This document shows, one piece after another, positions 14,901 through 55,448 of a stretch of DNA of 64,000 bases. Each line of letters opens with the position of its first letter. Positions within the stretch are counted from its first letter, which is position 1. Both the position numbers and the translations under genes were made by a program. The notes beneath the pieces are model-generated. The model did no database searches, was not told where the DNA came from, and saw nothing but the letters and a program-made list of their open reading frames with translations. Location: contig CAYJVT010000002.1 in the NCBI GenBank assembly GCA_964373695.1, forward strand, positions 1,020 to 65,019. Direction: 5' to 3'. Source of the DNA: an uncultured archaeon. Lineage in GTDB: Archaea > Aenigmatarchaeota > Aenigmatarchaeia > GW2011-AR5.

Positions 14901-17034
14901 GGTCCAGAATGTAAGGCCGGAGAAGTCAACTGTCGCGGCGCGGGGACTGGAGATCACGCTGTTCGACGCGCTGCCTGCGAGCGTGCCGGCCGGGCAGCAG
15001 TTCGCAGTTACAGCTGTCCTGAAGCACGAAGGCGTGCTGGACAACGTCACCGACATGAAAGTGGCGTTCTCGTGCAATCAGTGGTGCCTAATTGACGGCG
15101 TCACTGCCACTGATAAAGGCGTAAGCAGGACAAGCAAAGGGGCTTTCATGATAAATAATGCCGTGAATGGCCAGAGCATCCTGCTGAAGGGCGAATCAAT
15201 GGTGGCATCGTTCTCCGGCTTCATTTCAAAATCAGTGACCAACAGGGAGAACGAGTACAGGCTGGCAAAGGTCACGATGAACGTTTCGTACAAATACTCA
15301 ACAACAAGCTCGCTCTTCGTCGAGGTGGTAAACAGCGAGGAGCTCAACAAGAGGACCAACGAGGGAAAGAACTTCAGGAACGTGGTCGCGATAGGCAAGA
15401 ACGGCCCGGCGCAGCTTTCGCTGAACGTGGGACCGCAGCCCCTGATTGCCGGGAAGAACGCTCTGCTGCTTGTGTCCGTATCGAATTCGCGCGACGACAG
15501 TTCCGTAATACTGAATGAAGGAAGCGAAATCACGATAAGGATGCCGCGTTCAGTCGGCAGCGGACTGAACTGCGACGGATTTGTCCATGAAGAGACGGAC
15601 GGATATCCGGACATTACCGGCGTGGAGGTCGTGAGGTACAAAGTCTCGCCGAAGACAGCCGACAGGGTGGAGATAAAGGCCTCGGACTTCAATTCCATAT
15701 TCCCGTTCATATGCAGCTTCACGGCAAATGAAGTACGCGGCGCCGGCCCGCTCACGCAGACAGGGCTCGTGACGGCAGAACTGCCTTCATACGAGTTCAC
15801 GGTCATAAAGGAGAAGGAAGTGCCGGTAACAGTGCCGCTAGGCATCCTGTTCGACTCCAATGAAAGGATTTGCCGTGGAGCCTCAGGCCAAGCCGAATGC
15901 ATCTCGCTTGACAAATGCTATTATGAGGATAAGGGAGCCGCAGAAAGCTCCCTGCTCAGCGACTTGTGCCACTCTTGCGCTCAGGAGCCTACATGCGACC
16001 AGTTCATGTCGCAGGAAAGCTGCGAGCAACAGTCAGTATCGCAGTGCGGCCTCTCCAACTGCGGCTGGGATGCCGACGCGAGGAACGAGATAGGCGTGAC
16101 GACAGGCAAGTGCTTCCAGAAGCCCAACCAAATAAACGGTAACGTGAGGAACGCAATACTTTCAGGCACAATAATTGAAAAAATAATACAGGCGTCGAAA
16201 GCCGCCGGATTTGACAGGGAAGATACGAAGAGGGTGCTTGCCGTGGCGGCGCAGGAGAGCGGATTCAGGATGGTCTCCGGAGACGGCGGCGATTCGGCAG
16301 GAGTTTTCCAGCTGAATAAAAGAGCACATCCGACATGGTTCGACCCCCTGCTGTCCGGATGTCCAGACGGCCAAACCGCCTTAGATGAGGACTGCAACAT
16401 CAAGCTTGGCGTTGACTTCATCAAGAGCCTGCACATCCAGTATTTCAACGACAACCCAAGAACTTATGCCTGTGAGAGAGTATACAGCGGTTGGAACGCA
16501 GTTTTCAGATATTATAATGGATGGAACTCGCCATCCACATGCAATGATTTGACAGTAAGTTATGTAGAGAAAGTAAACGGGTGGCTCACATGCAGGGACA
16601 AGGCAAGCTGTGTTGAAAATGCGATAGTCAGGAATATCGATGATGTACGCGGATATGAGAACTTGATGGAAGCCGTATTCGCAGGGAAAGGGAGTGTGGA
16701 TTTCTGCAGGGAAGCCAGAATCGATATAAACAACAAGGCAAACAGCTGGTCATATGGACAGGGATTGTGTATAGAAGGGGAGGGAGGATGCGAAGGGGAC
16801 GGGCAGTGCGGCAAGCTGTTTAAAGACGTCAGAATAGACACCTCAGGCGTCTGCGTGAAGCCTGGCCATGATAATTATGACGATGTTGCGCATCAATTCG
16901 TGAATGCAGGAAAACTCCAGAGCGGCGCCGGCATCTGCTGCTATTCAGATGAAAGCGGCAACATAAATGCAAACAGGTGCAAAGCCGCTTACAGCCAGTG
17001 GTTCGGCTCATCGCCGTTATTCTCCACTGTATAA
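11950..17034 (+). CDS. Giant (1694 aa) multidomain membrane protein: 3 PKD-like repeats, Gly/Arg-rich linker, multi-TM block, beta-rich ectodomain, lytic-transglycosylase (SLT/GH23)-like domain, Cys-rich tail
   Basis: Three ~130-aa repeats with CEV(T/S)GGxGxYxYKW ... G(T/R)YxVxLTVTD (PKD-like). Five or six TM helices around aa 790–930. SLT signature AVAAQESGF...GDSAGVFQLNK...YSGWNAVFRYYNGWNS. Many Cys in CxxC/CxC arrangements C-terminally. Confidence 0.85.
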   Translation: MAEQDRTIEDIKNDILSEKRNIKRRLQSDEDPRQIAEQLISRYALRNPHITNRDWIHDGVVSAINEIIGETTGTTIGGGHPKYNPLQHRGPHYIEEKHFVVKILQPNPHNPRENNIELHQEPTTGQQFHEKIVFDAEVTGGKGPFRYKWEVQVSGQGFTTWIHFWPYDKNGIAYDWSDEVDSRDYKFFKGGLDTIRNNFHYAQPLHATHMDDPWASLPPGTYRVRVTVRDSTRKEAQAETTFTVGGLIPDKNYIKAHITSPAESGHIKEIELHTDVSTGDRWHEAVTFNCEVTHGITPYTYEWKIDNHTVWQGTNDMFKTFQRGGQKNPVAEPNNSDANLDIPAASLTEGRHEIVLTVTDRRRNTATAKCFLIVTSKPRGKMRAVITQPRDEDPKKTFGKELKGEKEESYHEPITFDCEVSGGSGNYDYKWTATSMDQDLNETSAEVPLNFVSRKTFTRGGQTHPVNNENDPQASLSEGLYQITLKVTDINNTNETAEATTWIRIGEEEGTHARSLSSYVGMRPAAARIGGGWAGGPRGAYTRRQAMTGIGERAMHRVQHPMSGSGRALGFIRSEKKEGTGTWGKEGIRGAIRSNIAVQSAVNQGKRELNRWARQMFSPEFQRLQRELRTLTDTWRRRRREWVDVRNQARRQYGRWRDYLKGQGGADALTNSVTIAQQRGQVNEVQARLLIDQINQAYNRFTKSEEELLNFSHSKASELQTTINNRMEKVAEQVAGRIIYRFKIKDGAAQDDIKSELKGEAQKIATSMVEKGRDTLSGPLGMIRSASMGAKTVGASYYSFWEFWREILTAPFIWGTLFAVVQYFFILTYVGYNPTYLLIYPIITALFTFLVYFGDLFEGGARPFDLFNHLASGAIIGYTAVLLMLAFGFQTFVSTGWFWGIWIFFSLIGIFQFYHSGGFRIVLQGGVIILLFAYIAMGPYSGYYQQVIDQVRGPVVVAYDAVEKTVGDVYLLATNPTEWYARQQVQNVRPEKSTVAARGLEITLFDALPASVPAGQQFAVTAVLKHEGVLDNVTDMKVAFSCNQWCLIDGVTATDKGVSRTSKGAFMINNAVNGQSILLKGESMVASFSGFISKSVTNRENEYRLAKVTMNVSYKYSTTSSLFVEVVNSEELNKRTNEGKNFRNVVAIGKNGPAQLSLNVGPQPLIAGKNALLLVSVSNSRDDSSVILNEGSEITIRMPRSVGSGLNCDGFVHEETDGYPDITGVEVVRYKVSPKTADRVEIKASDFNSIFPFICSFTANEVRGAGPLTQTGLVTAELPSYEFTVIKEKEVPVTVPLGILFDSNERICRGASGQAECISLDKCYYEDKGAAESSLLSDLCHSCAQEPTCDQFMSQESCEQQSVSQCGLSNCGWDADARNEIGVTTGKCFQKPNQINGNVRNAILSGTIIEKIIQASKAAGFDREDTKRVLAVAAQESGFRMVSGDGGDSAGVFQLNKRAHPTWFDPLLSGCPDGQTALDEDCNIKLGVDFIKSLHIQYFNDNPRTYACERVYSGWNAVFRYYNGWNSPSTCNDLTVSYVEKVNGWLTCRDKASCVENAIVRNIDDVRGYENLMEAVFAGKGSVDFCREARIDINNKANSWSYGQGLCIEGEGGCEGDGQCGKLFKDVRIDTSGVCVKPGHDNYDDVAHQFVNAGKLQSGAGICCYSDESGNINANRCKAAYSQWFGSSPLFSTV

Positions 17035-17075
17035 CGGGCACAGCCGCCGGATGAAATCATATCCTGTTTATTTGC

Positions 17076-17185
17076 TTGTTTCACTATAAGGGAAGAATAC
17101 ATCTTCGGCCGTGATGCCTTGCTTGTTTCACATATAGTGCCAAAGAAAAGTATATATTGAATCTTTTCTTTGAGCACTATAAGCA
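17076..17185. repeat. ~100-bp palindromic element, copy A
   Basis: GTTTCACATATAGTGCCAAAGAAAAG-TATATATTGAAT-CTTTTCTTTGAGCACTATAAG, with an upstream partial arm GTTTCACTATAAG. Homologous to the copies at 5529 and 52502. Confidence 0.7.
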
Positions 17186-17328: not shown

Positions 17329-19050
17329 CTACTTCCCGATGCCGCGGTCTTTGCGGAACTTCTTCGGGTTCCGCGCGAGGTCAACGATGTCCTTCTGCAC
17401 ATTATCAATCTCGAGGAAGAGCGAGTCGATGCTGCTCTTGACGGACGGCATGTCTCTCACTGCATCATGCAGAGAGGCGATGCGCTCTTCCATCGCCTTG
17501 ATGCTGTCACTGCTGGCCGCCGCGTTGCGCTGCACGGCGCACAGCATATCGCGAAGGTCGCCGACCTGCTGAGCCAGGGTATCGCAGACCGCCTTCTTCC
17601 CGGCTGGCGCAGCAGGCCCGCCGAGACGCTGCCGGATGCGGGCGTCGATGCGGCTCCGGTCGCCGGGCCAGGTGACTTTCCCAGGCTCGAGGAGACCGAC
17701 CGCCGGAGCTGTCGGGAAGCCTTCCCCGCGGAGGACAACCATGTCGTTGAACTTGATGCCTTCGGGCACAGTGACGATGTACGGCTCGCCCCAGTCATCG
17801 TACTGTACGAGCGGGTATTTGGTCGAGATAGAGGTCGTAGACCTGTAGCCTGCTGTGTAGGCCGTCGGCGGCTTCATGTCGAAAGATGCCGGCAGCTCAA
17901 CCACATCCGCGTAGTCGACCAACCAGAAGGTCACCAGGCCTGCCTTCATGTTCTTGAGGAACTCACGCGCCGGAGCTTCCTCCCTCTTCCGTATCTCGAC
18001 GACAACCTGGTTCTTCCCGCCCGAAAACTCCGGCGCGTCGTACTGCACCCGGAGCTTGGTGATGACCTCGCCGGCGCGCAGCGTGGCGATGTCACGCAGC
18101 ACGCTCTGCCAGAGGAAAGGCTGACCGTCCTGCACGATGACCATATCCTGCCGCTTCGGGATGCGGAACGCCGACGTCCGACGCCTCAGCTCCAGCGGCC
18201 CGCCAGGAGTGTACTCGAGCTCGTCGCCCGGGATGAACATTCCAGCGATATTGCGACACTCCTCCTTTGTTCCTGCGAAGCGCAGCTCCTCTCCTTTCGT
18301 TGTTGTGGGGCGGTACTCGGCCGTCCCGTCTGGATTCACTACAACCTTCTCGCTGGCCAGCACGAAGGTCACGACATTGACTTGTGAAGGACCGGGGTAT
18401 ACTGCAGGCGCCTGGACGGCGGCTTCTGGCTCTTCGTCGTTTGGAGTAACTTTTGGAGTAACTTTTGGAGTAAACCACGTGCCCGGGTTCCACCAGTCGG
18501 CGGCGGCGGGGGAGGCGGCGAAGATGACGGCCAGAACCACCATGCCTTTGAGTAACTCTCTGGCATGGATGATGTGTCCTCTGACGCCGTCCCCTTCGTC
18601 GTCATCGGGTGTAACCCTTGAGATTCCGTCCAATTCTAACATAATCTTCCTGATGTTATTCCGACGGCGCCCGCGCTTGCGCATCATGCAGACGGCGAGT
18701 GGGATGCCGCCGACGAAGAAGATGATGTTGAGGAACAGTACCCAGCCTGCCAATGCATTCATCTTGCTCTCCCTCTTGTTGCGCACGTGCACTTCATCAC
18801 GTGAAGTTGTGGGTGAGGACTGCTTGTTGTGAGTGGGTTCGGCTGTGACAGCGGCCTGATTATGGCCTTCAGGACTGCCGGAAATCACGGCCGCGAAAAC
18901 AGAGGCCACTACCACGAGAACCAGTATTGTGACACCGGCCATGATTGCCGCTCCGAACCAGCTGAGGCCGAGTCTCACGCAGATACGAAGCAGGTACAGA
19001 ACTGCCAGTATCAAAGCCAGTACGGCTACTGCATAGGGGATGATGCTCAT
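17329..19050 (-). CDS. Hypothetical membrane protein with PKVTPKVTP repeat, encoded in a high-GC island
   Basis: 573-aa ORF. N-terminal TM helices, a second TM block (~aa 100–125), a Pro-rich tandem repeat, and a C-terminal coiled-coil. A long antisense ORF also exists because of high GC; minus strand chosen for its TM/coiled-coil organisation. Confidence 0.5.
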   Translation of the reverse strand: MSIIPYAVAVLALILAVLYLLRICVRLGLSWFGAAIMAGVTILVLVVVASVFAAVISGSPEGHNQAAVTAEPTHNKQSSPTTSRDEVHVRNKRESKMNALAGWVLFLNIIFFVGGIPLAVCMMRKRGRRRNNIRKIMLELDGISRVTPDDDEGDGVRGHIIHARELLKGMVVLAVIFAASPAAADWWNPGTWFTPKVTPKVTPNDEEPEAAVQAPAVYPGPSQVNVVTFVLASEKVVVNPDGTAEYRPTTTKGEELRFAGTKEECRNIAGMFIPGDELEYTPGGPLELRRRTSAFRIPKRQDMVIVQDGQPFLWQSVLRDIATLRAGEVITKLRVQYDAPEFSGGKNQVVVEIRKREEAPAREFLKNMKAGLVTFWLVDYADVVELPASFDMKPPTAYTAGYRSTTSISTKYPLVQYDDWGEPYIVTVPEGIKFNDMVVLRGEGFPTAPAVGLLEPGKVTWPGDRSRIDARIRQRLGGPAAPAGKKAVCDTLAQQVGDLRDMLCAVQRNAAASSDSIKAMEERIASLHDAVRDMPSVKSSIDSLFLEIDNVQKDIVDLARNPKKFRKDRGIGK

Positions 19051-19821
19051 CTCTTCTCCTTCCCTTGCGCGTTAAGCTGTTGTAATGGGAGTGGGTGGAT
19101 GTGAACGTTAGCCTTTTTTTCATAGTCTCTCCTTCCGGAAATCGAGGCAGGATTCATCAGGGCTAGCTGTTTCCGGCTTTCATCCATGCGGAGACTTTGG
19201 CTTCCACCGCCCTGATTTTCTCTAAGGCAACCTTCAAGTCTTCCGCGTTTTCGATGCCGGCGGACTTCAGAACGAATATGATGATCGGAATCAACTACAA
19301 TCTGCCCTCGCAGATTGTCCTGAATGACGGGCATCCTCAGACCTGCCGTTGGGGTTGACGTATCTATGCGCGACATCTGTTCATGAATCACACAGCTGCT
19401 GGACGATGCCCTCTTTGCTGCTGCCGCATGCTGCGCATATCGCCATCATCTGTCCTTTCTGCTATGATGTCTTCCGACATCCTTAGATAAAATTAAGTCG
19501 TGTAGAATTCTAGGTTTGGCTACTTTTTTCCTGCCGTGTTTTCCCTCGCCCAGACGGGCGGCTGAAGGAATGCTCCCGTCCTTTTCAGGTGGGGAACATT
19601 CCAAAGGCTGACATGACTCGACAGAAGCGTGTTCTGGATCGATGTCAGACCTGATTTTTTTGTGTATTTGGTTTGAAGGCCGTGAAGCGGATTTTCACCA
19701 CTTAACAGCCGTGACATTTATTTAAAAGACTACCGCAGAAAAGTATTTAAAGGTTTTGTTACTTTTGGGTGGTTTTAAAATCGATATGGCAATGCCGATT
19801 AATTAAAATTCGATTCGGGAT

Positions 19822-37141: not shown

Positions 37142-37213
37142 GCATACGTGAAACAAGTTTATACACGGCCTTCGCTTGCTCCACTATATAAGGATTGCGC
37201 CAAACTTAATCTC

Positions 37214-38159: not shown

Positions 38160-38657
38160 ATGATAAAGAAAATCAGAATACCGGATGAAAGGATACCGGT
38201 TCTCATAGGGAAGAATGGAAAAACTAAAGCCATGATACAGAGACTGACGCACACAAAAATCGACATTGGGGAAGAAGCGACAGTGGAAGGCGAGGCTGTG
38301 GATGTCATGACCGCAGAGAGCATCATAAAAGCCATCGGCAGAGGATTCTCACCGGAAGCTTCAGAAATCCTGTGCAGGGAAGACAGCACGCTGGAGATAA
38401 TCCAGCTCCCGAAAGAGAGAAAAGAATTAAATAGGATAAAATCAAGATTAATAGGAACCAAAGGGAAGTGTAGGAGGAACATAGAAAACCTTACCAAAAC
38501 CCGCATATCGGTCTTCGGAAAGACAGTTTCGGTCATAGGTCCGTACGATAACGTGAGGTTTGTGGTAGAGGCGCTTCAAAGACTTATAAAAGGCGACACA
38601 CACAGTTCCGTTTACAGGTTTCTGGAAGAGAACCAGGAAAAAATGAATTTTGAGTAA
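38160..38657 (+). CDS. KH-domain RNA-binding protein (Dim2/Pno1-like)
   Basis: Two KH units with IPVLIGKNGKTK and LIGTKGKCRRNIE GxxG loops. Start set at MIKKIRIPDER; the upstream in-frame part overlaps aIF1A. Confidence 0.7.
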   Translation: MIKKIRIPDERIPVLIGKNGKTKAMIQRLTHTKIDIGEEATVEGEAVDVMTAESIIKAIGRGFSPEASEILCREDSTLEIIQLPKERKELNRIKSRLIGTKGKCRRNIENLTKTRISVFGKTVSVIGPYDNVRFVVEALQRLIKGDTHSSVYRFLEENQEKMNFE

Positions 38658-41600
38658 GCCGGTGATGATCATGTCAAAGAAAACCGCGGAAGACTTCGCG
38701 AAGCAACAGAAGGAAATAAGCATATCAGAATTCTTTGAAAAGAACAAGCATCTTCTTGGCTTTGACAATCCGACAAAAGCCCTTCTCATGGCTGTGAAAG
38801 AAGCTGTCGACAATTCTCTTGATGCATGTGAAGAGGCCGAGATACTTCCTGACATAACCGTGAAAATAAAAAACCTGAAAGAAGATGTATACAAAGTATC
38901 GGTTCAGGACAACGGTCCGGGAATAGTGAAAGAACAGGTTCCGAGGATATTCGGCAAATTGCTCTATGGCTCTAAATTTCACCGATTGCGCCAGTCCAGA
39001 GGTCAGCAAGGAATTGGGATATGCACAACACCAGATACTTTAATACCTCTTGCAGACGGGCGCATAAAAAGGATAGAAGATATCGTAGAGTCGGAATTAG
39101 AAGAGGAAATATTTACACTCGCACCGGACATGAAACTAGTGCCAAACAAAATGAAAAAATTCTGGAAATTACCTGCGCCGGAAAAAATGATAAAAATAAA
39201 AATGCTCGGGGGCGGGAGCCTGACACTAACAAGAGAGAATCCTGTGCTAATAAAGACAGATTTCGGCTTAAACTGGAAACCCGCTGAGCTTGTAGCGCCA
39301 AGAGATTATATTGCTATGGCAAGAAATCTCTCTATAAATCATAATGAAAAAAAGATTCCACTTATCAGTTTGCTGGATGAAAATGTGCGTGTTGACAACT
39401 ACGAATTTCTTAGTGAAGTGCTGAGTATTTTGAAAAAAAGACATGGTACATGGTCTAAATTAGGAAATATATACGGCCTGCAAAAGGATCTTCTGAAGGG
39501 GTGGAAAAAGATGGGCATCAGAAGACGTCCAACACTAAAACAATATATTATGCTAGCTAAAGATGCAGGCTTCTCTGAAGATTATATAACAGAGAGCATA
39601 ATACGGGTTGGCAGGCTTGGGACTTATATAAAAATTTTTCGATATATGACCCCTGAACTAGCACGTCTCGCTGGCTTGGTGGCTGGCGATGGTAATATCC
39701 AGGCAAAGAGAAAAAACAGATGGGGTACAAACATATCTTTCTGGAATAATGATACAAAACTTATAGAAGAGTTCTGCAGCATAGTTTACAATTTTTTTGG
39801 TATAAGACCGAATGTTTATGCCCATACAAAAGGCCGCGGGACAGGGGCACAATTCTCGTCCTCAATAGTTGCTGATATTTTAGAAAAACTCGGTGTCCCA
39901 AGAGGTAGAAAAAGCGAGAAATTTGAAATCCCTGATTTGATACGACAAAACGGAGATCTGTCTGCTGCTTATCTTGGGGGGTTGTTTGATGCAGAAGGCT
40001 CTGTCAGCAGCGACAGAAAATGCATAACTCTTATGCTGAGTAACAAAAATGTAATCAATGTCATACGTCTTATGCTTCTTAGATTTGGCATAGTAAGCAG
40101 GATTAATAAAGCAGGAAAACATACAAGATTAATTATATCATCTGCGAAAAATGTAGAAAAATTCAAGAATATAATAGGCTTTACAATTAAGACAAATAAA
40201 GCAAAATTAGATTCATTAAAATTCTATAATGACAGAAAATGCAATCTTGAAGTCATACCGCATGTTAAGTATGCTGTTAAAAATTCTGTAAAAGAGATCG
40301 GTACCAGTTATTATGCTTTAAGAAGCCCAAATGAAATTTCTTCTATAAGAAGAGGCAGTGCAGTAAGCCATGAAACTCTTAATTCTTTATGTGAAGTGCT
40401 TGTTGAAAATTCCGGGGAAAGACTACCGCTTCCAGTACAAGAACTTGTAGGAATGGCGAATGCTGATGTAACATGGGCAAAGGTAATAGAAACAAAAGAA
40501 ATTGACTCTCCATGTGAATATGTTTATGACATAACTATGGGCATAGGTAATAATTTCGTAGCAAATGGGTTTGTAATACATAATTCAGCCGTTGTCCTGT
40601 ATTCGCAGCTTACCACAGGAAGCCCTACACGAGTTCTTTCAAAGACCGATGAAAAGAAAAAAACCCAGGCGTTTGAACTCATAATAGATACCAAAAAAAA
40701 CGAGCCTGAGATAGTAAAACATGAGGAAAAAGAAGACGGCATACAAGGCACCGGCATAAGGGTTGAGATGGATGTAGTCGGCAGGTACAGGAAGTCACAG
40801 GGAGTGGATGACTATCTTAAGCAGACTTCGATATCGAACCCGTTTGCAAAAATCTCATACAATGCGCCAGACGGGACGAAGATGCTATTTTCGAGGACTG
40901 TCAACGAGCTTCCCGTCCCGCCGAAGGAAATAAAGATACATCCATACGGCGTCGAGTTCGGCATTCTGCAGAGATTCCTCAACCAGACGAATTCGCGCAC
41001 TTTGCAGGCATTCCTCGTGAACGAATTTTCATCCGTTGGCCAGCAGACAGCGAAAGAAATGTGCAATATAGCAAAGCTTGACCCTAATATGAAACCCATT
41101 GACCTGTCAAGAGAGCATATCGAAAAGCTCCTTGGCGCGATGCAAAAAGCAAAGGTGCAGAGGCCGCCTCTCGACTGCCTTTCCCCCATAGGGGAGAAGG
41201 AGCTTGAAAAGAGCCTGAAAAAAGAATATCCGGATGCTGAATTCATAACAACCCTAACCAGGTCGCCTGAAGTCTACAGAGGCAACCCTTTCCAGATAGA
41301 AGTCGGCATAGTCTACGGCGGGCCTGATATAAAATCTGACGGGCCGATAGAAGTTATAAGGCTCGCGAACAGGGTGCCGCTGCTGTATCAGGCCGGTGCA
41401 TGCGCCACGATGGAAGCCATAAAGGAAGTCGACTGGAAGAGATACGGCCTCCAGCAGTCTGGCAATAATTTGCCGATAGGGCCGGTGATACTTGTCGTTC
41501 ACATGTGCTCCGCGTGGGTACCGTTCATATCCGAGAGCAAGGAGGCGATAGCATCCTATCCCGACATAATAAAAGAGATGAAACTCGCTGTACAGGATGC

Positions 41601-41811
41601 CGGCAGGAATCTCTCAAGGTACCTCTCCGGGAAAAGGCGAGCTGGCGATGCCAAGAGGAGAATACAGATATTTGAAAGGTACAGCGCCGAAGTTGCATCT
41701 GCGGTGTCTCTGCTTACAAAAAAATCCGAGAAAGACATAGAGAAAAAACTAAAAAACATGATAGCCCAGAGGACGCATATAAAAGATGAGGAAGAGAAGC
41801 AAGAAATATAG
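38650..41811 (+). CDS. top6B: DNA topoisomerase VI subunit B, interrupted by a 521-aa intein
   Basis: Bergerat-fold ATPase motifs EAVDNSLDA, DNGPGI and GKLLYGSKF...SRGQQGIG|C, then the C-extein with transducer domain. Extein total is about 532 aa. Confidence 0.9.
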   Translation: MSKPVMIMSKKTAEDFAKQQKEISISEFFEKNKHLLGFDNPTKALLMAVKEAVDNSLDACEEAEILPDITVKIKNLKEDVYKVSVQDNGPGIVKEQVPRIFGKLLYGSKFHRLRQSRGQQGIGICTTPDTLIPLADGRIKRIEDIVESELEEEIFTLAPDMKLVPNKMKKFWKLPAPEKMIKIKMLGGGSLTLTRENPVLIKTDFGLNWKPAELVAPRDYIAMARNLSINHNEKKIPLISLLDENVRVDNYEFLSEVLSILKKRHGTWSKLGNIYGLQKDLLKGWKKMGIRRRPTLKQYIMLAKDAGFSEDYITESIIRVGRLGTYIKIFRYMTPELARLAGLVAGDGNIQAKRKNRWGTNISFWNNDTKLIEEFCSIVYNFFGIRPNVYAHTKGRGTGAQFSSSIVADILEKLGVPRGRKSEKFEIPDLIRQNGDLSAAYLGGLFDAEGSVSSDRKCITLMLSNKNVINVIRLMLLRFGIVSRINKAGKHTRLIISSAKNVEKFKNIIGFTIKTNKAKLDSLKFYNDRKCNLEVIPHVKYAVKNSVKEIGTSYYALRSPNEISSIRRGSAVSHETLNSLCEVLVENSGERLPLPVQELVGMANADVTWAKVIETKEIDSPCEYVYDITMGIGNNFVANGFVIHNSAVVLYSQLTTGSPTRVLSKTDEKKKTQAFELIIDTKKNEPEIVKHEEKEDGIQGTGIRVEMDVVGRYRKSQGVDDYLKQTSISNPFAKISYNAPDGTKMLFSRTVNELPVPPKEIKIHPYGVEFGILQRFLNQTNSRTLQAFLVNEFSSVGQQTAKEMCNIAKLDPNMKPIDLSREHIEKLLGAMQKAKVQRPPLDCLSPIGEKELEKSLKKEYPDAEFITTLTRSPEVYRGNPFQIEVGIVYGGPDIKSDGPIEVIRLANRVPLLYQAGACATMEAIKEVDWKRYGLQQSGNNLPIGPVILVVHMCSAWVPFISESKEAIASYPDIIKEMKLAVQDAGRNLSRYLSGKRRAGDAKRRIQIFERYSAEVASAVSLLTKKSEKDIEKKLKNMIAQRTHIKDEEEKQEI
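39022..40584 (+). mobile_element. Intein with LAGLIDADG homing-endonuclease domain in top6B
   Basis: Begins with Cys directly after GIGI. LAGLVAGDGNI and LGGLFDAEGSV dodecapeptides. Ends VANGFVIHN with +1 Ser. About 30% GC against ~45% in the exteins. Confidence 0.85.
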
Positions 41812-41821
41812 GTAGTATATA

Positions 41822-44506
41822 ATGCCGCAAAAAAACGTGGGCGCGGAGCTGAAGAAACTCGGCGAATCCGTGCTAAACCATATAGAGAAAGGCGAGAACC
41901 CGAACATAGACATACCGCTAAGAACATTGTCCAACGTGATATTCGACAAAAAATTAGGGCAGCTTACCCTCGGCGGCAAGAGCGCCAAAAGGTACTTCTT
42001 CAATGTTGCCCACTCAAAAAAGTTCATGCAGACCCTTATGGTGGCAGGATTCTGCAATTCCCTTCTCGAAGAAGGCATACATACCAGCATAAGAGACATG
42101 TACTACAACCTCAAGCGGACGCTTCCGCAGAGCGATGAGAATACTTTCGATGAGCAGAGCGAGAGTATTTGCCCTGATGAGCCCCTGCTTGTCAAAATGG
42201 ACGGAGACCTCAGAATTTTGAGCGGAGAAGACCTCATGAGACATGCGGAAAAATCCGGGAAGGTAATATACGACAAAAACGGCAAGAAAAGAATCGTCGG
42301 GTTAGACCTCTATACCTATGCGTTTGATGAAAACCAGAAAATAAGAGAACAGAAGGTATCAATGGTCATAAAGCATCCCTCAAATAAAATCAAGAAAATA
42401 AAAACCTCCTCCGGAAGGGAAGTAAAAGTAACAAAGTCTCACAGCTTATTTACTCTTAAAGACGGGAAAGTAACTGAAATAAAAACAAATGAACTCAAAG
42501 AGGGCGACATGATAGCCCTTCCGAGAAAAATTTCTATAAAAGAAAACAACAAGCCAATAAATGTCATCGATAGCCTTCTTAGAAATGCTCCAGATGATGT
42601 TGTAAAGCTGTTCTATGTGAAGTCAGACAAAGACACAATAAATGAAGTAATAAAGAGGGTGGGAAAGGAGAGAATACGAATTTTTTCTTCGAATAATTAT
42701 AAAAATATATGGAGCGATGTAAAAGCTAACTGGAAGCATTGGAACACAGTCCCTATAGAGATTTTAAGGGACGTAGATTTGTCCGACATATTATCTAAAT
42801 TAAAAATCGGCGGCAGGGGATCTAGGCACTATTATAATGTACTGATAAACAAGGATTCCAGCTTGGGCTTTGTTCTTGGATTTCTCATTAGCGAGGGCTC
42901 TCATTCTATATTTGAGGGTAGGAATTCAAGATACGTATCCATAAGCAATAAATCAAAGATGCACCTGCAAAATTTCTGGGATGCATTCAAGCACTCGTTT
43001 GGAGAGACAACGGATGGTAATATCATATTGGGCAAAGATGATGTGTATAAGCTAAACATAGGGTATGATACACTTAGCTATATCCTTGAGTATGTTATAG
43101 GCTATAAACCTGTGAGGGCGTGGGAAAAAGAGGTTCCACATGTTATTCTCGATGCACCTCAAGATTGCATAAAGGAATTTCTGAGAAGCTTTAGGCTTGG
43201 AGATGGAAGCGTATTCGAAGGCAAAATGCTTGTAAATGGCTTGGTTTTTCTGCTGCTAAGGCATGGAATATTCCCCAGAATATATCACTATAAAATATCT
43301 GAAAAAAATCCGAACCATAAAGATGCATATGAAATCAGAATTGGCCCGAGGGAATATGTCAAAAATATGGCTCAGATAACACATGATTTCATGGGTATAG
43401 ACATAGAAAAAACAAGAGATTTCTCTTCAGACATGATACCAAACGTAGGGAGCCTTCTTCTAAAGACCAGAAAATCCTGTGACAGGCAAGGCATAGTTTA
43501 CAGAGAAAGAAATATAGGATGGAATTATATCGAGAACAAAAACAGCGTAAGCAGACTTCTTTTAAATAAAATGTCAAAGATATTGGATTCTTACGGCGCT
43601 TCGCAGCATTATTTAGATGAACTAAATGAACATGTAGAAAGCGACATATATTGGGATAGTATAATATCAATAGAAGACGACGAAATGCCGCCTTACACGC
43701 TGGATCTGGCTGTTCCGCCACATGAAAATTTCATAGGCGGGAACGGTCTTCTGATGCTTCACAATTCCGACCCGCTTATAGTCGATCTGGAAGTAGCACT
43801 GGACGTCTTAAGAGAGCAGCTGCACCTGACAACCGACAGGAAGGGAATAGTCGCAGGCAATGTCGTGATAGAGGACAGAGGCGACAGCATAGACTGGTCA
43901 AAGCTCGGGAGCGGCGGATGGTCGATACCGAGCACAGTTGACGAAATCAAACTCAAAAAGGTGGACGCAAAATTTGTTCTTGTTTGTGAAAAAAATGCCG
44001 GCTTCGAGCGCCTGCACGAGGACAAGTTCTGGCAGAAGCAGAAATGCATATTGGTCGGGACAGGAGGCCAGCCGTCAAGAGGCGCCAGACTTCTGATACA
44101 GAGATTGAATTCTGAATATGACCTGCCTGTTTATGTATTTTGCGATAACGACGCCTACGGCTTTTATATTTATTCAGTGATAAAATCCGGCTCGATAAGC
44201 CTTGCGCACGTTTCAGACAGAATATCGACACCGGAAGCTAAATTCATTGGGCTGACAACATCTGACATCTATGATTATAACCTCAAGAAATGCACGATAA
44301 AACTCAAGGAAGTTGACATAAAGCGCGCCAAGGAGCTGCTGGAATATGAATGGTTCAAGAAGAACCCCAAGTGGCAGAAAGAAATAAACCTCATGCTTGA
44401 AAAAGGCGTGAAAGCCGAGATAGAGGCGCTCTCTCACAGGGGTCTTAAATTCATGTCAGAGGAATACCTGCCGGACAAAATCAAGAAAGGCGATTTTCTC
44501 GATTAA
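41822..44506 (+). CDS. top6A: DNA topoisomerase VI subunit A (Spo11 homolog), interrupted by a 532-aa intein
   Basis: N-extein ...MYYNLKRT...FDEQSESI. C-extein carries Toprim (VLVCEKNAGFERL..., DNDAYGFYIY). Extein total is about 362 aa. Confidence 0.9.
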   Translation: MPQKNVGAELKKLGESVLNHIEKGENPNIDIPLRTLSNVIFDKKLGQLTLGGKSAKRYFFNVAHSKKFMQTLMVAGFCNSLLEEGIHTSIRDMYYNLKRTLPQSDENTFDEQSESICPDEPLLVKMDGDLRILSGEDLMRHAEKSGKVIYDKNGKKRIVGLDLYTYAFDENQKIREQKVSMVIKHPSNKIKKIKTSSGREVKVTKSHSLFTLKDGKVTEIKTNELKEGDMIALPRKISIKENNKPINVIDSLLRNAPDDVVKLFYVKSDKDTINEVIKRVGKERIRIFSSNNYKNIWSDVKANWKHWNTVPIEILRDVDLSDILSKLKIGGRGSRHYYNVLINKDSSLGFVLGFLISEGSHSIFEGRNSRYVSISNKSKMHLQNFWDAFKHSFGETTDGNIILGKDDVYKLNIGYDTLSYILEYVIGYKPVRAWEKEVPHVILDAPQDCIKEFLRSFRLGDGSVFEGKMLVNGLVFLLLRHGIFPRIYHYKISEKNPNHKDAYEIRIGPREYVKNMAQITHDFMGIDIEKTRDFSSDMIPNVGSLLLKTRKSCDRQGIVYRERNIGWNYIENKNSVSRLLLNKMSKILDSYGASQHYLDELNEHVESDIYWDSIISIEDDEMPPYTLDLAVPPHENFIGGNGLLMLHNSDPLIVDLEVALDVLREQLHLTTDRKGIVAGNVVIEDRGDSIDWSKLGSGGWSIPSTVDEIKLKKVDAKFVLVCEKNAGFERLHEDKFWQKQKCILVGTGGQPSRGARLLIQRLNSEYDLPVYVFCDNDAYGFYIYSVIKSGSISLAHVSDRISTPEAKFIGLTTSDIYDYNLKKCTIKLKEVDIKRAKELLEYEWFKKNPKWQKEINLMLEKGVKAEIEALSHRGLKFMSEEYLPDKIKKGDFLD
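42170..43765 (+). mobile_element. Intein with LAGLIDADG homing-endonuclease domain in top6A
   Basis: Starts CPDEPLLVKMDG. LAGLIDADG-like LGFLISEGS and FRLGDGSV. Ends GLLMLHN with +1 Ser. Exact N-terminal junction is ±1 residue uncertain. Confidence 0.8.
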
Positions 44507-44632: not shown

Positions 44633-44789
44633 GCCTCGGTAGCTCAGTACAAATCCCTTCTTTGTAAAGAAGGTCTTGGTGAACCCCAAGAAACTATTAT
44701 ACAATGGATAGGGAGAAAGGTAAGCAGTCTCTACAAAGAGCATTTGGCTGTTAACCAAAGGGTCGACGGTTCGAGTCCGTCCCGAGGCG
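44633..44789 (+). tRNA. tRNA-Asn(GUU) with ~83-nt intron in the D-loop
   Basis: Acceptor GCCTCGG/CCGAGGC; D-stem GCTC...GAGC separated by ~92 nt; anticodon arm TTTGG-CTGTTAA-CCAAA; V-loop GGGTC; T-arm GACGG-TTCGAGT-CCGTC; discriminator G. Confidence 0.85.
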
Positions 44790-46933: not shown

Positions 46934-48442
46934 TTTCTTAACTGGATCCCCGAGGGACTCCACTGGCTCTCCCGATATATACATCCTCATCTTTCCTGGC
47001 AGATCGCTGACCTTTATCCTGACCTGTTTCATGGTATCCCTGTCGCGAAGTGTCACGGTGCCGGATGAAATCGTGTCTGAATCCACCGTTATGCAGGCGG
47101 CGACCCCTATCTCGTCCATTCTTCTGTATCTGCGGCCAATGCTGCCGGAATCATCGTAAAAAACATCCATGCCGGCGGTCACGAGGGTTTTCCTTATTTC
47201 CGTGGCCTTGGCGTCCATCCCGTCCCTTTTTACAAGCGGCAGGACGGCACAATCAAAAGGCGACAAAACCCTCGGCAGCCTGAATATAGTCCTTTCCTCC
47301 TGGCCCACAGTCTCTTCGACGAATCCCATGTCAAGAACGGCATATACGTTCCTGTCGACCCCGAAGGAAAGCTCCAGCACGTGCGGAATGAACTTCTTGC
47401 CGTCGTGAAAAATATCCATGTTGCGGCCCGACACCTTCTGGTGGCCCGCAAGATCGTGGTCGGTCCTGTAGTGTATGCCCCCGACCTCCCTGAACCCTTC
47501 CATGCTCTCGATATCGAGCTCAATGTCCCAGTGGTACTTATTGTAAAAGGCTTTCTCCTCGTCACTGAGCTCCCTGAACCTGAACTTTTCCGGCGCTATT
47601 CCGAGAACTTCGAGATAGAATTTTTGTATCATTGCCATATAGTAAACGTAGAACTTCGGCAGCTTTACAGAGGCATTGCTGCAGGAAATCTCATGGACTA
47701 TGCCCGACTTCCTGGAATCAACCGAAAGAAGCCTTAGATTGTACGAAGAGACTTCATCGAACCTTTCGTGGCCGTTTATCATGTCCGGGTTGAAAAATAT
47801 CTGCAGCTCGGCCTGGTCGAATTCCCTCATACGTATCAACAGATTCCTGGGACTTATCTCGTTCCTGTAGGCACGGCCCAGTATCGCAAGGCCCAACGGG
47901 AGCCGCTTCCTCAAGACCTCAAACTCCCTTGGGAAGCTCACGTAAGCCCCCTGAGCTGTTTCTGGCCTCAGATAACCGAGAGACGAGCCTATCATAACAG
48001 GGAACATCATGTTCAGAATCCCGACCTCTTCCAGCTCCCCTCCGCATTTCGGGCATTTTATCCAGTGTTCCCTAATGAGCTTTGTGAGTCCATTGGCTGA
48101 CAACCCCTCAAAACTTTCTTTAAGGATGGATTCTACAAGGTGGTCCGCCCGCTCCAGACTGCCGCATTTACTGCATTTTGTTATCGGGTCGACGAAGGAA
48201 TCCACATGTCCCGAGGCCTTGAAGACCCTGTCGGGCATCATGTTCCTGCAGTCTATCTCGAAGAAATTCCAGTCCAGCCCAAGGAAATATTTCCTCCATA
48301 AATTCTCCCATTTTCTCTTTATCAGAGTCCCTATATGGCCGTAGTCATAGAGTCCTGAAACGCCTCCGTATATGTCCGAAGAGACCCAGAAAATTCCCCT
48401 GCGCCTTGCTATCTCCTCTATTTTGTTTTCTTTCTTCGCCAT
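46928..48442 (-). CDS. glyS: Glycyl-tRNA synthetase (archaeal/eukaryotic class II type)
   Basis: 504 aa. Class II motifs FRNEISPRNLLIRMREFDQAE (motif 2) and GIHYRTDHDL (motif 3). Confidence 0.9.
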   Translation of the reverse strand: MAKKENKIEEIARRRGIFWVSSDIYGGVSGLYDYGHIGTLIKRKWENLWRKYFLGLDWNFFEIDCRNMMPDRVFKASGHVDSFVDPITKCSKCGSLERADHLVESILKESFEGLSANGLTKLIREHWIKCPKCGGELEEVGILNMMFPVMIGSSLGYLRPETAQGAYVSFPREFEVLRKRLPLGLAILGRAYRNEISPRNLLIRMREFDQAELQIFFNPDMINGHERFDEVSSYNLRLLSVDSRKSGIVHEISCSNASVKLPKFYVYYMAMIQKFYLEVLGIAPEKFRFRELSDEEKAFYNKYHWDIELDIESMEGFREVGGIHYRTDHDLAGHQKVSGRNMDIFHDGKKFIPHVLELSFGVDRNVYAVLDMGFVEETVGQEERTIFRLPRVLSPFDCAVLPLVKRDGMDAKATEIRKTLVTAGMDVFYDDSGSIGRRYRRMDEIGVAACITVDSDTISSGTVTLRDRDTMKQVRIKVSDLPGKMRMYISGEPVESLGDPVKKL

Positions 48443-52367: not shown

Positions 52368-52501
52368 GGGCGCGTAGCTCAGCTTGGATAGAGCACCTTT
52401 TATGAAAGGCCTTCTTTCATAAGTGTCGGCCTTCTAAGCAGGGGGTCGCGGGTTCGAAAGCTGAAGCGCTAAGGCGTTGGCCGATTTTCCCGTCGCGCCC
52501 A
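52368..52501 (+). tRNA. Intron-containing tRNA with an insert in the T-loop/T-stem 3' side plus ~30 nt extra in the anticodon region; isotype undetermined (CAU possible)
   Basis: Acceptor GGGCGCG/CGCGCCC; D-arm GCTC-AGCTTGGATA-GAGC; T-stem GCGGG + loop TTCGAAA, then a 29-nt insert GCTGAAGCGCTAAGGCGTTGGCCGATTTT before the 3' T-stem CCCGT; discriminator A. 134 nt total. Confidence 0.75.
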
Positions 52502-52603
52502 TTATAGTGAACCAAATAAATAAACATGATATGACTTATTTAGTTCACATATAGTGCCCAAGAAAACTAATTCTGAATGTTTTCTTGGAGCACTATAAAT
52601 ACA
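52502..52603. repeat. ~100-bp palindromic element, copy B
   Basis: TTATAGTGAACCAAATAAATAAAC...GTTCACATATAGTGCCCAAGAAAAC-TAATTCTGAAT-GTTTTCTTGGAGCACTATAAAT. Starts at the base after the tRNA 3' end. Its right arm supplies a TATA-like box ~30 nt upstream of leuS. Confidence 0.7.
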
Positions 52604-52625: not shown

Positions 52626-55448
52626 GTGCCGTCGATGGATTTTGCAAAAATAGAAAGGAAATGGCAGCAGAAATGGAAGAAATCTGGGATATTCAAAACC
52701 AACCCCGAGAAGAAGAAGAAATTCTTCACTTCCATCATCATACCATACGTCAACGGCAGGATGCATATAGGCCACAGCTATACATACACAAGGACCGACG
52801 CTTACGCCAGATTCAAGAGGATGCAGGGGTACAATACGCTTCTTGCCCAGGGCTTTCATGCTACCGGTGAGCCGATAGTAGGTGCAGTCGAAAGGCTGAA
52901 GAACGGCGACAAAAGCCAGGCAGAAACATTCAGGATATTCGGTGCCACCGAAAAAAACATCTCGGACTTCAAAAAGCGCGGTCCAGAATTTGTTGCAAAA
53001 TTCTGGATGAAAAAATTCACGGAAGACTCCGATTCAATGGGATATTCGATAGACTGGAGAAGAAGCTTCGTAACGACGTCCATAAGCCCTCAGTTCTCCA
53101 GGTTCATAGAATGGCAGTACAACACGCTAAGAAAAAAAGGATACGTAGTGCAGGGCACCCATCCAGTGATATGGTGCCCCCACGACCAGTCCCCGACAGG
53201 CGACCACGACAGGCTTGAGGGTGAAGGAGAAAGCCCTGTAGAATATGTAGGGATTAAATTCAGAATGGAAGACGCCTTCCTAGTTTGCGCCACCCTGAGG
53301 CCTGAAACCGTGTACGGGGTGACAAACATATGGGTGAATCCGGACGCCACCTATGTAAAAATAAAGGCCGGCGGCGAGAAGTGGATCGTGAGCAGGGAGT
53401 GCTTCTACAAGCTGAAAGACCAGATAAAACATGTGGAAAAGGTATGTGAAGTCACTCTTGCCGGGAAGAGGTGCACCGACATTGTCGGCAACAGGGAAAT
53501 ACCGATACTGCCGTCGCATTTCATCGACTCCGAGTCAGCGACGGGTATAGTGATGAGCGTTCCTGCCCATGCGCCTTACGACTGGATGGCGCTTAAGGAG
53601 CTCATTGACAAAAACGAGCTCGAAGTTTACGGGCTGTCAAAGTCCGACATCGAACCAATAATAGCAGTAGACTCGGGTTCGGAGAATGCAATGGAGCTGT
53701 GCACCAAGATGAAAATAATAGGCCCGGGCCAGAAGGATCTTCTGGAAGACGCCACAAAGAGCCTGTACAAGAAGGAATTCCATGGCGGCGTGCTCAACGA
53801 CAAGTGCGGGCCTTACACAGGATTGAAGGTGTCCGAAGCGAAGGAAAAAATAATCTCGGACTTCATATCCAAAGGCATCGCGCATCCTATATGGGATTGT
53901 CCGAAGGTTGTGTGCAGATGCACCACACGATGTCATGTCAAAATACTGGAAAACCAGTGGTTCCTGAAATATTCCGACAACGCATGGAAGGACATGGCCA
54001 GAAAATGTCTGGCTGGTATGAGGATAGTCCCGGAGGAATCAAGGCAGAACTTCGAGAATACAATAGACTGGCTGAAGGACAAGGCATGCGCAAGGAAATC
54101 CGGACTCGGCACGCCTCTCCCATGGGACAAGGCCTGGATAGTCGAGACTCTTAGCGACTCCACCATCTACATGGCCTACTATACGATAGCCGACATCATA
54201 AACAAAAACAGAATAAGCGCCAAAAGTCTTACCGACGAAGTCTTTGACTGCATCTTCCTGGGAAAAGGCGACCTGAAAGCCGTGGCAAAAATGAGCAAAA
54301 TACCGGCTAAAACGCTTGCATCAATGAAGGAAGAGTTTGAATACTTCTATCCGCTCGATATAAGGAACAGCGCAAAGGACCTGATACAAAACCACCTGAC
54401 ATTCTACATAATGCATCATGTGGCGTTGTGGAGAAATCGGTACTGGCCTAGGGGCATCTCAACGAACGGATACGTCAGTGTAGAAGGGCAGAAGATGAGC
54501 AAGTCTAGGGGGAACTTTATAGTACTGAAGGATGTCATAAAAAACTTCGGGGCTGACATGGCTAGAATCAATATAGCGTGCTCCAGTGAGGGTCTGGAGG
54601 ACGCAGACTGGAGGGTTGAGAACATAAAAACATACAGGTCCCGGATAGAATTCATATTTGATGCAATAAAGAACATCGAAAAATCCGGCACCATGAAAAA
54701 CAGGAGCATAGACGATTACCTCATCAGCAGGCTGCAAAAGCATAAAAAAGACGCAACAGAGGCGTTCTCTGAGCTCAGACTGAGGTCGGCGTGCCAGAGC
54801 ACCCTTTTTGAAACAACGAACGACCTCAAATGGTACCTGAGAAGGGTTGGCGGCATGAAGCACGCCAACAAGAAGACCATGAAAATTTTCATGTCCGACT
54901 TAATAAGGCTGCTTGCGCCGCTGGTGCCGCACATATCAGAAGAGATGTGGAGGGTGGTGGGCGGCAGAGGATTCGTTTCGCTGTCCTCATGGCCGGCTGA
55001 TGACAAAGGCTTGTCAAACAACAGGGCCGAGCTATGGGAAAATACCATGATGCAGACATTGTCTGACATAGAAGAGATAAAGGGCATCATAGGCAAGGAA
55101 GTGAAGAAATGCACATTATTCGTTGCCGAAGACTGGAAATTCAAGACTCTGAATAAAATAATAAAGAATAAAAGCAGGCCTCTTGACGACATAACACGCG
55201 AAATAATGCAGAGCGATGCCAGGAGATACGGAAAGGCTACGCTTTCCTTCATACAATCTGCCTATTCCAAATCAAATGAAATCTCTGAGGTGATAGGAAG
55301 AGACGACCAATTAAAATTGCTTAACGAATCAAAAGGGTTCCTTAAGAGCGAGACTGGTCTGGAAATATCCATAGAAGACGCCAAAAAAAGCCAGAACCAG
55401 AAAGCCCGCAACTCAACGCCATACAAGTTTGGCATACTTCTTGATTAG
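52626..55448 (+). CDS. leuS: Leucyl-tRNA synthetase (archaeal type)
   Basis: 940 aa. HIGH motif (PYVNGRMHIGHSYTY), KMSKS (QKMSKSRGN), CP1 editing insertion. Confidence 0.92.
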   Translation: MPSMDFAKIERKWQQKWKKSGIFKTNPEKKKKFFTSIIIPYVNGRMHIGHSYTYTRTDAYARFKRMQGYNTLLAQGFHATGEPIVGAVERLKNGDKSQAETFRIFGATEKNISDFKKRGPEFVAKFWMKKFTEDSDSMGYSIDWRRSFVTTSISPQFSRFIEWQYNTLRKKGYVVQGTHPVIWCPHDQSPTGDHDRLEGEGESPVEYVGIKFRMEDAFLVCATLRPETVYGVTNIWVNPDATYVKIKAGGEKWIVSRECFYKLKDQIKHVEKVCEVTLAGKRCTDIVGNREIPILPSHFIDSESATGIVMSVPAHAPYDWMALKELIDKNELEVYGLSKSDIEPIIAVDSGSENAMELCTKMKIIGPGQKDLLEDATKSLYKKEFHGGVLNDKCGPYTGLKVSEAKEKIISDFISKGIAHPIWDCPKVVCRCTTRCHVKILENQWFLKYSDNAWKDMARKCLAGMRIVPEESRQNFENTIDWLKDKACARKSGLGTPLPWDKAWIVETLSDSTIYMAYYTIADIINKNRISAKSLTDEVFDCIFLGKGDLKAVAKMSKIPAKTLASMKEEFEYFYPLDIRNSAKDLIQNHLTFYIMHHVALWRNRYWPRGISTNGYVSVEGQKMSKSRGNFIVLKDVIKNFGADMARINIACSSEGLEDADWRVENIKTYRSRIEFIFDAIKNIEKSGTMKNRSIDDYLISRLQKHKKDATEAFSELRLRSACQSTLFETTNDLKWYLRRVGGMKHANKKTMKIFMSDLIRLLAPLVPHISEEMWRVVGGRGFVSLSSWPADDKGLSNNRAELWENTMMQTLSDIEEIKGIIGKEVKKCTLFVAEDWKFKTLNKIIKNKSRPLDDITREIMQSDARRYGKATLSFIQSAYSKSNEISEVIGRDDQLKLLNESKGFLKSETGLEISIEDAKKSQNQKARNSTPYKFGILLD

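Follow-up and report, generated by a model that had tools for sequence, protein, structure and literature searches.

A family of TA-flanked double-hairpin repeats in Aenigmatarchaeota with the properties of a MITE

The closest analogues of the repeat family described here are the SM MITEs of Sulfolobus, the Correia/NEMIS elements of Neisseria and the RUP elements of Streptococcus pneumoniae. The Sulfolobus MITEs SM1-SM4 were reportedly described by Redder et al. in 2001, and SM1 is said to be linked to ISC1048, a member of the IS630 family. Like the repeats described below, the SM elements are archaeal, intergenic and multi-copy, with lengths of 80-190 bp; they are derived from or mobilised by resident insertion sequences. 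The genomes of DPANN archaea are small and are thought to be streamlined. The Correia/NEMIS termini begin TATAG(T/C)GGATTAA. These elements resemble ours in being non-coding, A+T-rich and about 100-155 bp long (PMC2229807). RUP (with IS630-Spn1) and the MITEs of the IS630/Tc1-mariner group in general, eukaryotic Stowaway among them, resemble ours in inserting at TA and duplicating it; they are short, bear terminal inverted repeats (TIRs) and depend for their movement on a DDE transposase acting in trans (PMC2229807). The combination of TA duplication and a symmetric target is the hallmark of IS630/Tc1-mariner transposases (PMC2229807). A 2024 census of MITEs reports high densities in some DPANN genomes, with Aenigmatarchaeota unmentioned in its text, and a literature search found no published description of the present family.

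The window, that is, the whole 64,000-nt stretch of DNA analysed here, contains three copies (A, B and C) of a palindromic element, and they lie where a sequence-only reading of this DNA had placed them. Their relationship is evident from BLAST within the window, which aligns B with the right part of C (87.5% identity over 56 nt, E=2e-8), the left modules of A and B (90% over 30 nt, E=9e-5) and, on opposite strands, the left modules of B and C (88% over 33 nt). The motif TATAGTG is enriched, with 14 occurrences against 3.9 expected, a count reached by 0 of 100 shuffles. The identity of more than 70% over 100 bp that was first claimed is a little too high, since A and B share 66% across the whole unit. 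The elements are very probably a MITE of the TA-duplicating (IS630/Tc1-mariner-like) type that has spread through Aenigmatarchaeota (DPANN). They are small and non-coding, have TIRs and target-site duplications, and exist as dispersed near-identical copies with insertion polymorphism, and it is by these properties that a MITE is defined.

The unit is 94-97 bp long, below the limit of about 500 bp for MITEs, is non-coding and contains no ORF. It consists, in order, of TA, hairpin 1, ATATA, hairpin 2 and TA, with the sequence TA-TAGTGAAGCAAATAAAT-(loop of 12-13 nt)-ATTTATTTGCTTCAC-ATATA-GTCAGCAAAGAAAG-(13-nt loop)-CTTTCTTTGCATGAC-TA. The two hairpins are adjacent and imperfect, one at each end, and a 1-nt bulge in the 3' arm of hairpin 2 is conserved. 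Within one element the hairpins are alike (GTGAAGCAAATAAAT in one, GTCA-GCAAAGAAAG in the other), and because of the TA-rich junctions the unit resembles two foldback units of about 46 bp joined at TA. The outer ends are inverted (TAGTG.../...CACTA). The resulting TIR (TATAGTG.../...CACTATA) is perfect over 7-8 bp only, and agrees at about 14 of 19 positions (about 74% over 19 bp) when TATAGTGAAGCAAATAAAT is compared with the reverse complement of the right end, TATAGTCATGCAAAGAAAG; the termini can also be written TATAGTGAAGCAAAT and ATTTGCTTCACTATA, with TATAGTGAAGC... as a terminus. The boundaries are sharp, in that conservation among the 14-22 aligned copies runs exactly from TATAG to CTATA and the flanks are unrelated. 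Folded as single-stranded DNA and compared with shuffles, copy B (-23.3 kcal/mol) gives z=-9.1, the right part of copy C z=-7.1 and copy A z=-4.1.

Copy A (5531-5624, plus strand) measures 94 bp including both TAs and scores 83 bits with covariance model R1; it comprises TA (5531-5532), the body TAGTGAAAC...CATGACTA, and TA (5623-5624), and is intact but more degenerate than copy B. Copy B (52503-52597, plus strand; 95 bp, 103 bits) is intact, with hairpin 1 at 52507-52548 and hairpin 2 at 52550-52597. These natural boundaries, with both TAs counted, replace the extents 5529-5629 and 52502-52603 originally assigned to the two copies. Copy C (17054-17181) is not a simple copy but is rearranged. 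Its left fragment (17054-17088, minus strand; inverted repeats I1 and I2, recovered as a minus-strand pattern match) consists of the terminal TA, the 5' arm and the loop of hairpin 1, in inverted orientation. After a 30-nt filler comes the right fragment (17119-17181, plus strand), which has the 3' arm of hairpin 1, ATATA, a complete hairpin 2 and the terminal TA, but in which hairpin 1 has neither its 5' arm nor its loop. A fourth stretch (37144-37191, plus strand; ATACGTGAAACAAG...CTTGCTCCACTATATAA) might, with low confidence, be a decayed and internally deleted copy (14 bits with the covariance model, E about 2); in it, CACTATATAA lies 22 nt before the start codon of NMD3 (ATG, 37214).

Two convergent ORFs (11950-17034 on the plus strand and 17329-19050 on the minus strand) have their stop codons on either side of copy C. 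It adjoins an orphan gene, GC-rich (59-65%) and encoding 573 aa, in the interval 17329-19400. This gene is probably foreign DNA; among 5.8 billion proteins it has just one homologue, a distant one, and with only one such homologue there is no orthologous site from which the history of copy C could be traced.

Direct evidence for insertion comes from comparison of filled and empty sites. The sister species JACPAH01 is fully syntenic with the window, its LeuS and MscS-like proteins being 88% and 95% identical to those of the window. In the first pair the window is filled: copy A (left flank ...gcatccaatatcTA) reads ...aatatcTA[TAGTGAAAC...CATGACTA]TAttcgt, followed directly by the gccagg of tRNA-Ser, and the sister locus upstream of tRNA-Ser (L025) is empty, with ...aatatcTAtctgt before gccagg (also given as ...ttcatttaatatcTAtctgt before gccagg and as ...atatcTAtctgt). 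The orthologous site is empty in L026/JACPJX01 as well. In the second pair, at the convergent junction of a CBS gene and the ProRS gene, the window has an empty target TTAA at 46938-46941 (cgctataatttctTAactgg; ...tttctTAactgg) and the sister species carries a MITE at the central TA (L020, cgctataatttctTA[TAGTG...CACTA]TAaccgc, that is, ...tttctTA[TAGTGCTAC...GGTTTCACTA]TAaccgc). That insertion replaced the last four ProRS codons of the sister species (504 vs 522 aa). The empty site of each pair has one TA, and the filled site has a TA on either side of the element.

Orthologous sites vary in other comparisons too. Upstream of the same tRNA-Ser, at a distance of 1 nt, a contig from another relative (L027, from Logan) carries a copy that faces the opposite way, and this is an insertion independent of copy A. 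The site of copy B is occupied in the sister species (L020:9796-9965), where the element has been remodelled, and is empty or unalignable in L022 and L023, from relatives whose LeuS proteins are 72% and 60% identical. Across the flanks of 27 copies, T occupies position -1 in 20 and A position +1 in 24, with random sequence beyond, so that the target consensus is a palindromic T-TA-A. Insertion occurs at a TA dinucleotide, preferably within TTAA, with duplication of the TA, and both the TA target and the 2-bp TA duplication typical of IS630/Tc1-mariner elements are found here. A TA-duplicating DDE transposase of that type, acting in trans, would be the enzyme that moves the element.

The main rival to a TA-duplicating MITE is a hairpin-dependent single-stranded DNA element, IS200/IS605-derived (PATE-like) or REP/BIME-like, which an HUH (Y1) enzyme would insert 3' of NTTA without duplication. 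The two empty sites formally fit this model too, since an element that itself ends in TA and inserts 3' of ...TA would leave the same junctions. The imperfect hairpin at each end, the conserved bulge and the strong covariation of the arms (see below) also speak for it, as do the likeness of hairpins 1 and 2, which recalls the left-end and right-end hairpins of IS200/IS605-type elements, and the existence of modular arrays of 3-6 hairpin units (L003, L005, L020 and L040). However, IS200/IS605 elements are without terminal inverted repeats and recognise their target on the 5' side only, and the family described here departs from them on both counts. Its termini are inverted, and the palindromic target, with A at +1 in all but three of the 27 copies, fits a symmetric double-strand cut and not a guide-recognised target restricted to the 5' side. 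Nor did annotation of the loci reveal a Y1 transposase. We therefore regard an HUH-type element as improbable.

The sequence-only reading had allowed that the copies might be limited to the three in the window, but the family is far larger. A degenerate 30-nt pattern taken from the left module of the element found 17 loci in about 11 Aenigmatarchaeota MAGs, some of them labelled unclassified archaeon, with G+C contents of 40-50%. The window can on this basis be placed in the same DPANN phylum, and the homologues of LeuS point the same way. A covariance model built from 12 copies and run on these loci and on loci fetched for synteny revealed more copies in both sets, bringing the family to about 30 dispersed copies in about 15 genomes or assemblies. 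At unrelated loci within one genome the copies are 98-99% identical (L009, L011 and L012), and between genomes or subfamilies they are 66-91% identical, the subfamilies being 10-35% apart. This is a MITE family that extends across Aenigmatarchaeota, has been recently active in some genomes and has diversified into subfamilies. Among the variants are copies in which two additional mini-hairpins stand between the main ones (L003, L005, L020 and L013), an array of three units (L040) and copies in which hairpin 2 is deleted (L016). Independent short-read contigs (L001, L002 and L021) terminate within the element or at its edge and carry an identical or sister leuS, as happens where a dispersed repeat disrupts assembly. 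With the dispersed near-identical copies, these assembly breaks, the TIRs and the TA duplication in the two filled/empty pairs, the MITE-like interpretation that had been offered as one of three is the one sustained.

Searches outside these genomes yielded little. In viral contigs there was one chance match and the element was not found, and a metagenome scan with a TIR pattern returned 120 loci, of which 100 were searched with the model and 2 hold true copies. Most matches of this pattern belonged to an unrelated repeat, ..ttttgcaatactgtaa..TTATAGTCATGCAAATAAAgcttgttgttgtt, present in dozens of copies and then followed by a GTT microsatellite; this repeat and the microsatellite (L031-L148, sample Ga0126336) are probably from a eukaryote. 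Mini-hairpins with a stem of 7-9 bp and a 3-nt loop (GAA, TTC, AAA or TTT) occur both within MITE copies and in other intergenic DNA of related genomes, sometimes in tandem (L003:6556-6615, L005, L020:9865-9915, L013:1095-1260, L012:3380-3450 and L009:7010-7035), and may be a separate class of proliferating palindromes. One locus has two inverted MITE copies (L015:1278-1375 on the plus strand and 2773-2871 on the minus strand) with the same unusual variant of hairpin 2 (GTTCGCAAGGAAAC). They flank 1.4 kb encoding a secreted-looking protein of 275 aa and a 76-aa ORF, and may represent either a composite arrangement or gene conversion.

The search for an autonomous partner gave negative results. 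Neither the window nor about 250 kb of related loci nor the 120 metagenome loci yielded a transposase gene with the same termini, and Pfam detected neither a transposase nor an integrase among 30 ORFs of the window. Long-range pairs of TIRs that might bound a transposase yielded a sole candidate (L007), a chance match enclosing PheRS genes, and the 1.4 kb between the inverted copies of L015 contains no transposase-like ORF. Since no partner was found, the type of the transposase is inferred, and the likely assignment to IS630 is based on the TA duplication and the palindromic target.

Both hairpins covary strongly. In 22 copies 93.5% of stem cells are paired, compared with 80.6% in shuffles, and in 17 of the 33 base pairs both partners have changed. 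Covariation scores 0.33, vs 0.11 in shuffles and 0.09 or less with slid partners, and none of 500 shuffles attains the observed value. Compensatory change on this scale is what one might expect of a family of structured ncRNA genes, with two stem-loops under selection as RNA. Selection on a transcript from one strand should favor G.T over A.C mismatches, but the non-Watson-Crick stem cells number 17 G.T and 12 A.C, without strand asymmetry, and the element is palindromic and is scored by the covariance model on both strands. Strong covariation with no strand bias implies maintenance of the palindromes as DNA, or on both strands alike. The variable presence of the element at orthologous sites, with TA duplication, and its occurrence in both orientations relative to neighbouring genes likewise argue against an RNA gene. 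Rfam, run at gathering and lenient thresholds on the window, the elements and 17 related loci, found tRNAs and SRP RNA only and left the element unmatched (best score 20 bits vs a gathering threshold of 87). An ncRNA family is thus highly unlikely. A reading of the loops as C/D-box or H/ACA RNAs was also considered, and inspection by eye showed the conserved boxes to be absent.

One feature of the covariation is only partly explained. The arms covary within each hairpin, and variants of hairpin 1 and hairpin 2 assort independently between genomes, a pattern that the simple descent of a transposon with TIRs does not account for. One might conjecture that a transposase recognising foldbacks or cruciforms, and not a fixed TIR sequence, needs both hairpins, and that the element prefers TTAA within TATA boxes and the immediate flanks of tRNA genes, where the TATA would be rebuilt at each junction and insertions would be promoter-neutral or promoter-donating; as a whole this conjecture is unlikely. 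If it held, the independent covariation of the arms of each hairpin would be accounted for, and the family, with hot spots close to tRNA genes, would be an archaeal analogue of eukaryotic elements that target Pol III genes.

The relationship of the element to promoters is best seen at leuS (52635-55448, plus strand; Pfam tRNA-synt_1 and Anticodon_1, with homologues named leucine--tRNA ligase), which lies downstream of copy B. The sequence TATAAATA (52594-52601, plus strand) is composed of the element-end TA, the duplicated target TA and the flanking AATA; it ends 24 nt short of a GTG at 52626 and 33 nt short of the ATG at 52635, and judged by its sequence and position is likely to be the leuS TATA box. 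Boxes of the forms TATAAA, TTTATA or TTTAAA typically precede the starts of other genes of the window by 23-36 nt. TTTAAA and TTAAAT boxes contain the preferred target of the MITE, and insertion into such a box would leave ...TTTA-TAG at the left junction and CTA-TAAA... at the right one, thereby rebuilding a TATA-like box. Because the element ends in ...CTA-TA and can rebuild the box at its junction, insertions into promoters may be tolerated, and copy B would in this way carry part of the leuS TATA box. The original proposal that copy B supplies this box is therefore plausible in part, but the box is a chimera of element and flank, and the sequence upstream of leuS before insertion (...CATTAAATAC) was already TATA-like.

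These observations raise the question of whether the element is itself a cis-regulatory cassette, either a bidirectional promoter/operator or a terminator-promoter module to which a clade-specific factor binds. Its ends present (C/G)ACTATAA facing outward, its loops contain TATA-like runs, and copies lie 24-36 nt from the start codon at leuS, L017, L013 and L012. A promoter module should keep a constant position and orientation and be retained at orthologous promoters, but the element is missing from the orthologous promoters of the sister species, and distances to start codons range from 3 to more than 700 nt. The intergenic regions that harbour copies include tandem, divergent and convergent ones, and the copy at ProRS clips a coding 3' end. 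The proportions of these contexts are roughly those expected for unselective intergenic insertion, which argues against a dedicated regulatory role. Moreover, the stem sequences vary while pairing is kept, a poor fit to a sequence-specific operator. A shared operator or promoter function, the second of the early proposals, is accordingly very improbable as the reason for the existence of the element.

The third early proposal was a recombination site used by elements that target tRNA genes. Copies A and B do adjoin tRNA genes. Copy A ends 5 nt before the first base (5630) of an intron-rich tRNA of 224 nt (5630-5853, plus strand), read as tRNA-Ser(UGA) from its acceptor arms GCCAGGA/TCCTGGC and anticodon loop CTTGAGA; its 3' part matches the Rfam tRNA family below threshold, and orthologues are present in L025, L026 and L027. 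The TA of copy B begins 2 nt past the discriminator base of tRNA-Arg(UCU) (52368-52501, plus strand), which has two introns and which ARAGORN calls as a 75-nt tRNA-Arg(tct) after intron removal. Both of these tRNAs are missed by ARAGORN and Rfam because they carry introns. An attachment site of tRNA-targeting integrative elements would account for the contact of A and B with tRNA genes and for the GC-rich orphan gene next to copy C. But the tRNA sequence lies outside the repeat, without overlap, there is no integrase, cargo or second att copy bounding an island, and a search within 400 nt of 30 other copies left 24 of them without a tRNA T-loop motif. Such a role is extremely improbable. The same count means that a general preference of the MITE for tRNA genes is not established. 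A local hot spot is nevertheless hinted at by the two independent insertions no more than 4 nt apart, 5 nt and 1 nt upstream of tRNA-Ser. Copy A lies between tRNA-Ser and an upstream TTTTATC box that is present in the sister species. With this box displaced, tRNA-Ser may be transcribed by read-through across the element; alternatively, its transcription may depend on the TTAAATTAT run in the hairpin 2 loop of copy A (5592-5600), about 30 nt upstream of the tRNA.

The tRNA genes of these genomes differ in other ways. The tRNA-Arg(UCU) gene has two introns in the window and in L022, and the T-loop intron is absent from the sister species (L020:9693-9796), so that an intron has been gained or lost between close relatives. 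At window positions 5013-5510, where L025 and L026 have an upstream tRNA, lies a DUF7557/ParE toxin-antitoxin pair, and of the tRNA a 3' remnant (..ttgccgccggcgc) alone remains in the window. A second repeat family, AATCCCTTyCTT..AAGAARGGTCTTGGTGAACCCCAA(A)GAAC, is found inside tRNA genes as non-canonical introns (window 6787-6864 and 44650-44738; L026:3100-3180, 3376-3450 and 3530-3600; L027:3022-3100). Its positions differ, and its presence varies among orthologous tRNAs. At 6787 it follows a tRNA-Gly whose 3' end (aaatccNggcaggcgca) recurs past the repeat. The family looks like a mobile tRNA-intron-like element. Finally, both topoisomerase VI subunit genes of the window (38650-41811 and 41822-44506) contain LAGLIDADG inteins, and the Topo VI A of the sister species (359 aa) is intein-free.

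With about one MITE copy per 20 kb and recent activity in several Aenigmatarchaeota, the family points to ongoing transposition in DPANN. It accounts for breaks in short-read assemblies of Aenigmatarchaeota MAGs, and its insertion polymorphisms can serve as markers for the comparison of strains and lineages. Where TATA-like ends and loops have landed directly upstream of tRNA and protein genes, they would amount to natural promoter perturbations for the study of archaeal transcription initiation. In annotation, these loci should be labelled as repeats and not as regulatory sites or RNA genes.

The family is in most respects ordinary selfish DNA, unusual only in its local double-hairpin structure, its modular architecture and the independent covariation of each hairpin. 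Correia/NEMIS elements share with it TIRs with 5'-TA-3' at the termini, a target-site duplication shown by filled/empty alignments, strong stem-loop potential and putative outward promoters, and their cognate transposase has likewise not been identified (PMC2229807). They differ in having a bacterial host, an IHF site and TIRs of 24 bp that pair end to end, whereas the Aenigmatarchaeota MITE forms two local hairpins; past the first few bases the sequences are unrelated. RUP differs in that a partner insertion sequence with matching TIRs is known, and none was found for the Aenigmatarchaeota MITE. A partner is also known for the SM MITEs of Sulfolobus, which belong to Crenarchaeota and are unrelated in sequence. 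We know of no report of a double-hairpin architecture with arm covariation in the SM elements. REP/BIME sequences with their RAYT proteins and the IS200/IS605-derived PATEs of haloarchaea are also small extragenic imperfect palindromes, with mosaics of hairpin units and compensatory changes that preserve the stems. These, however, need a Y1 HUH enzyme and are without TIRs or target duplication, whereas the Aenigmatarchaeota MITE has inverted termini and a palindromic TTAA target.
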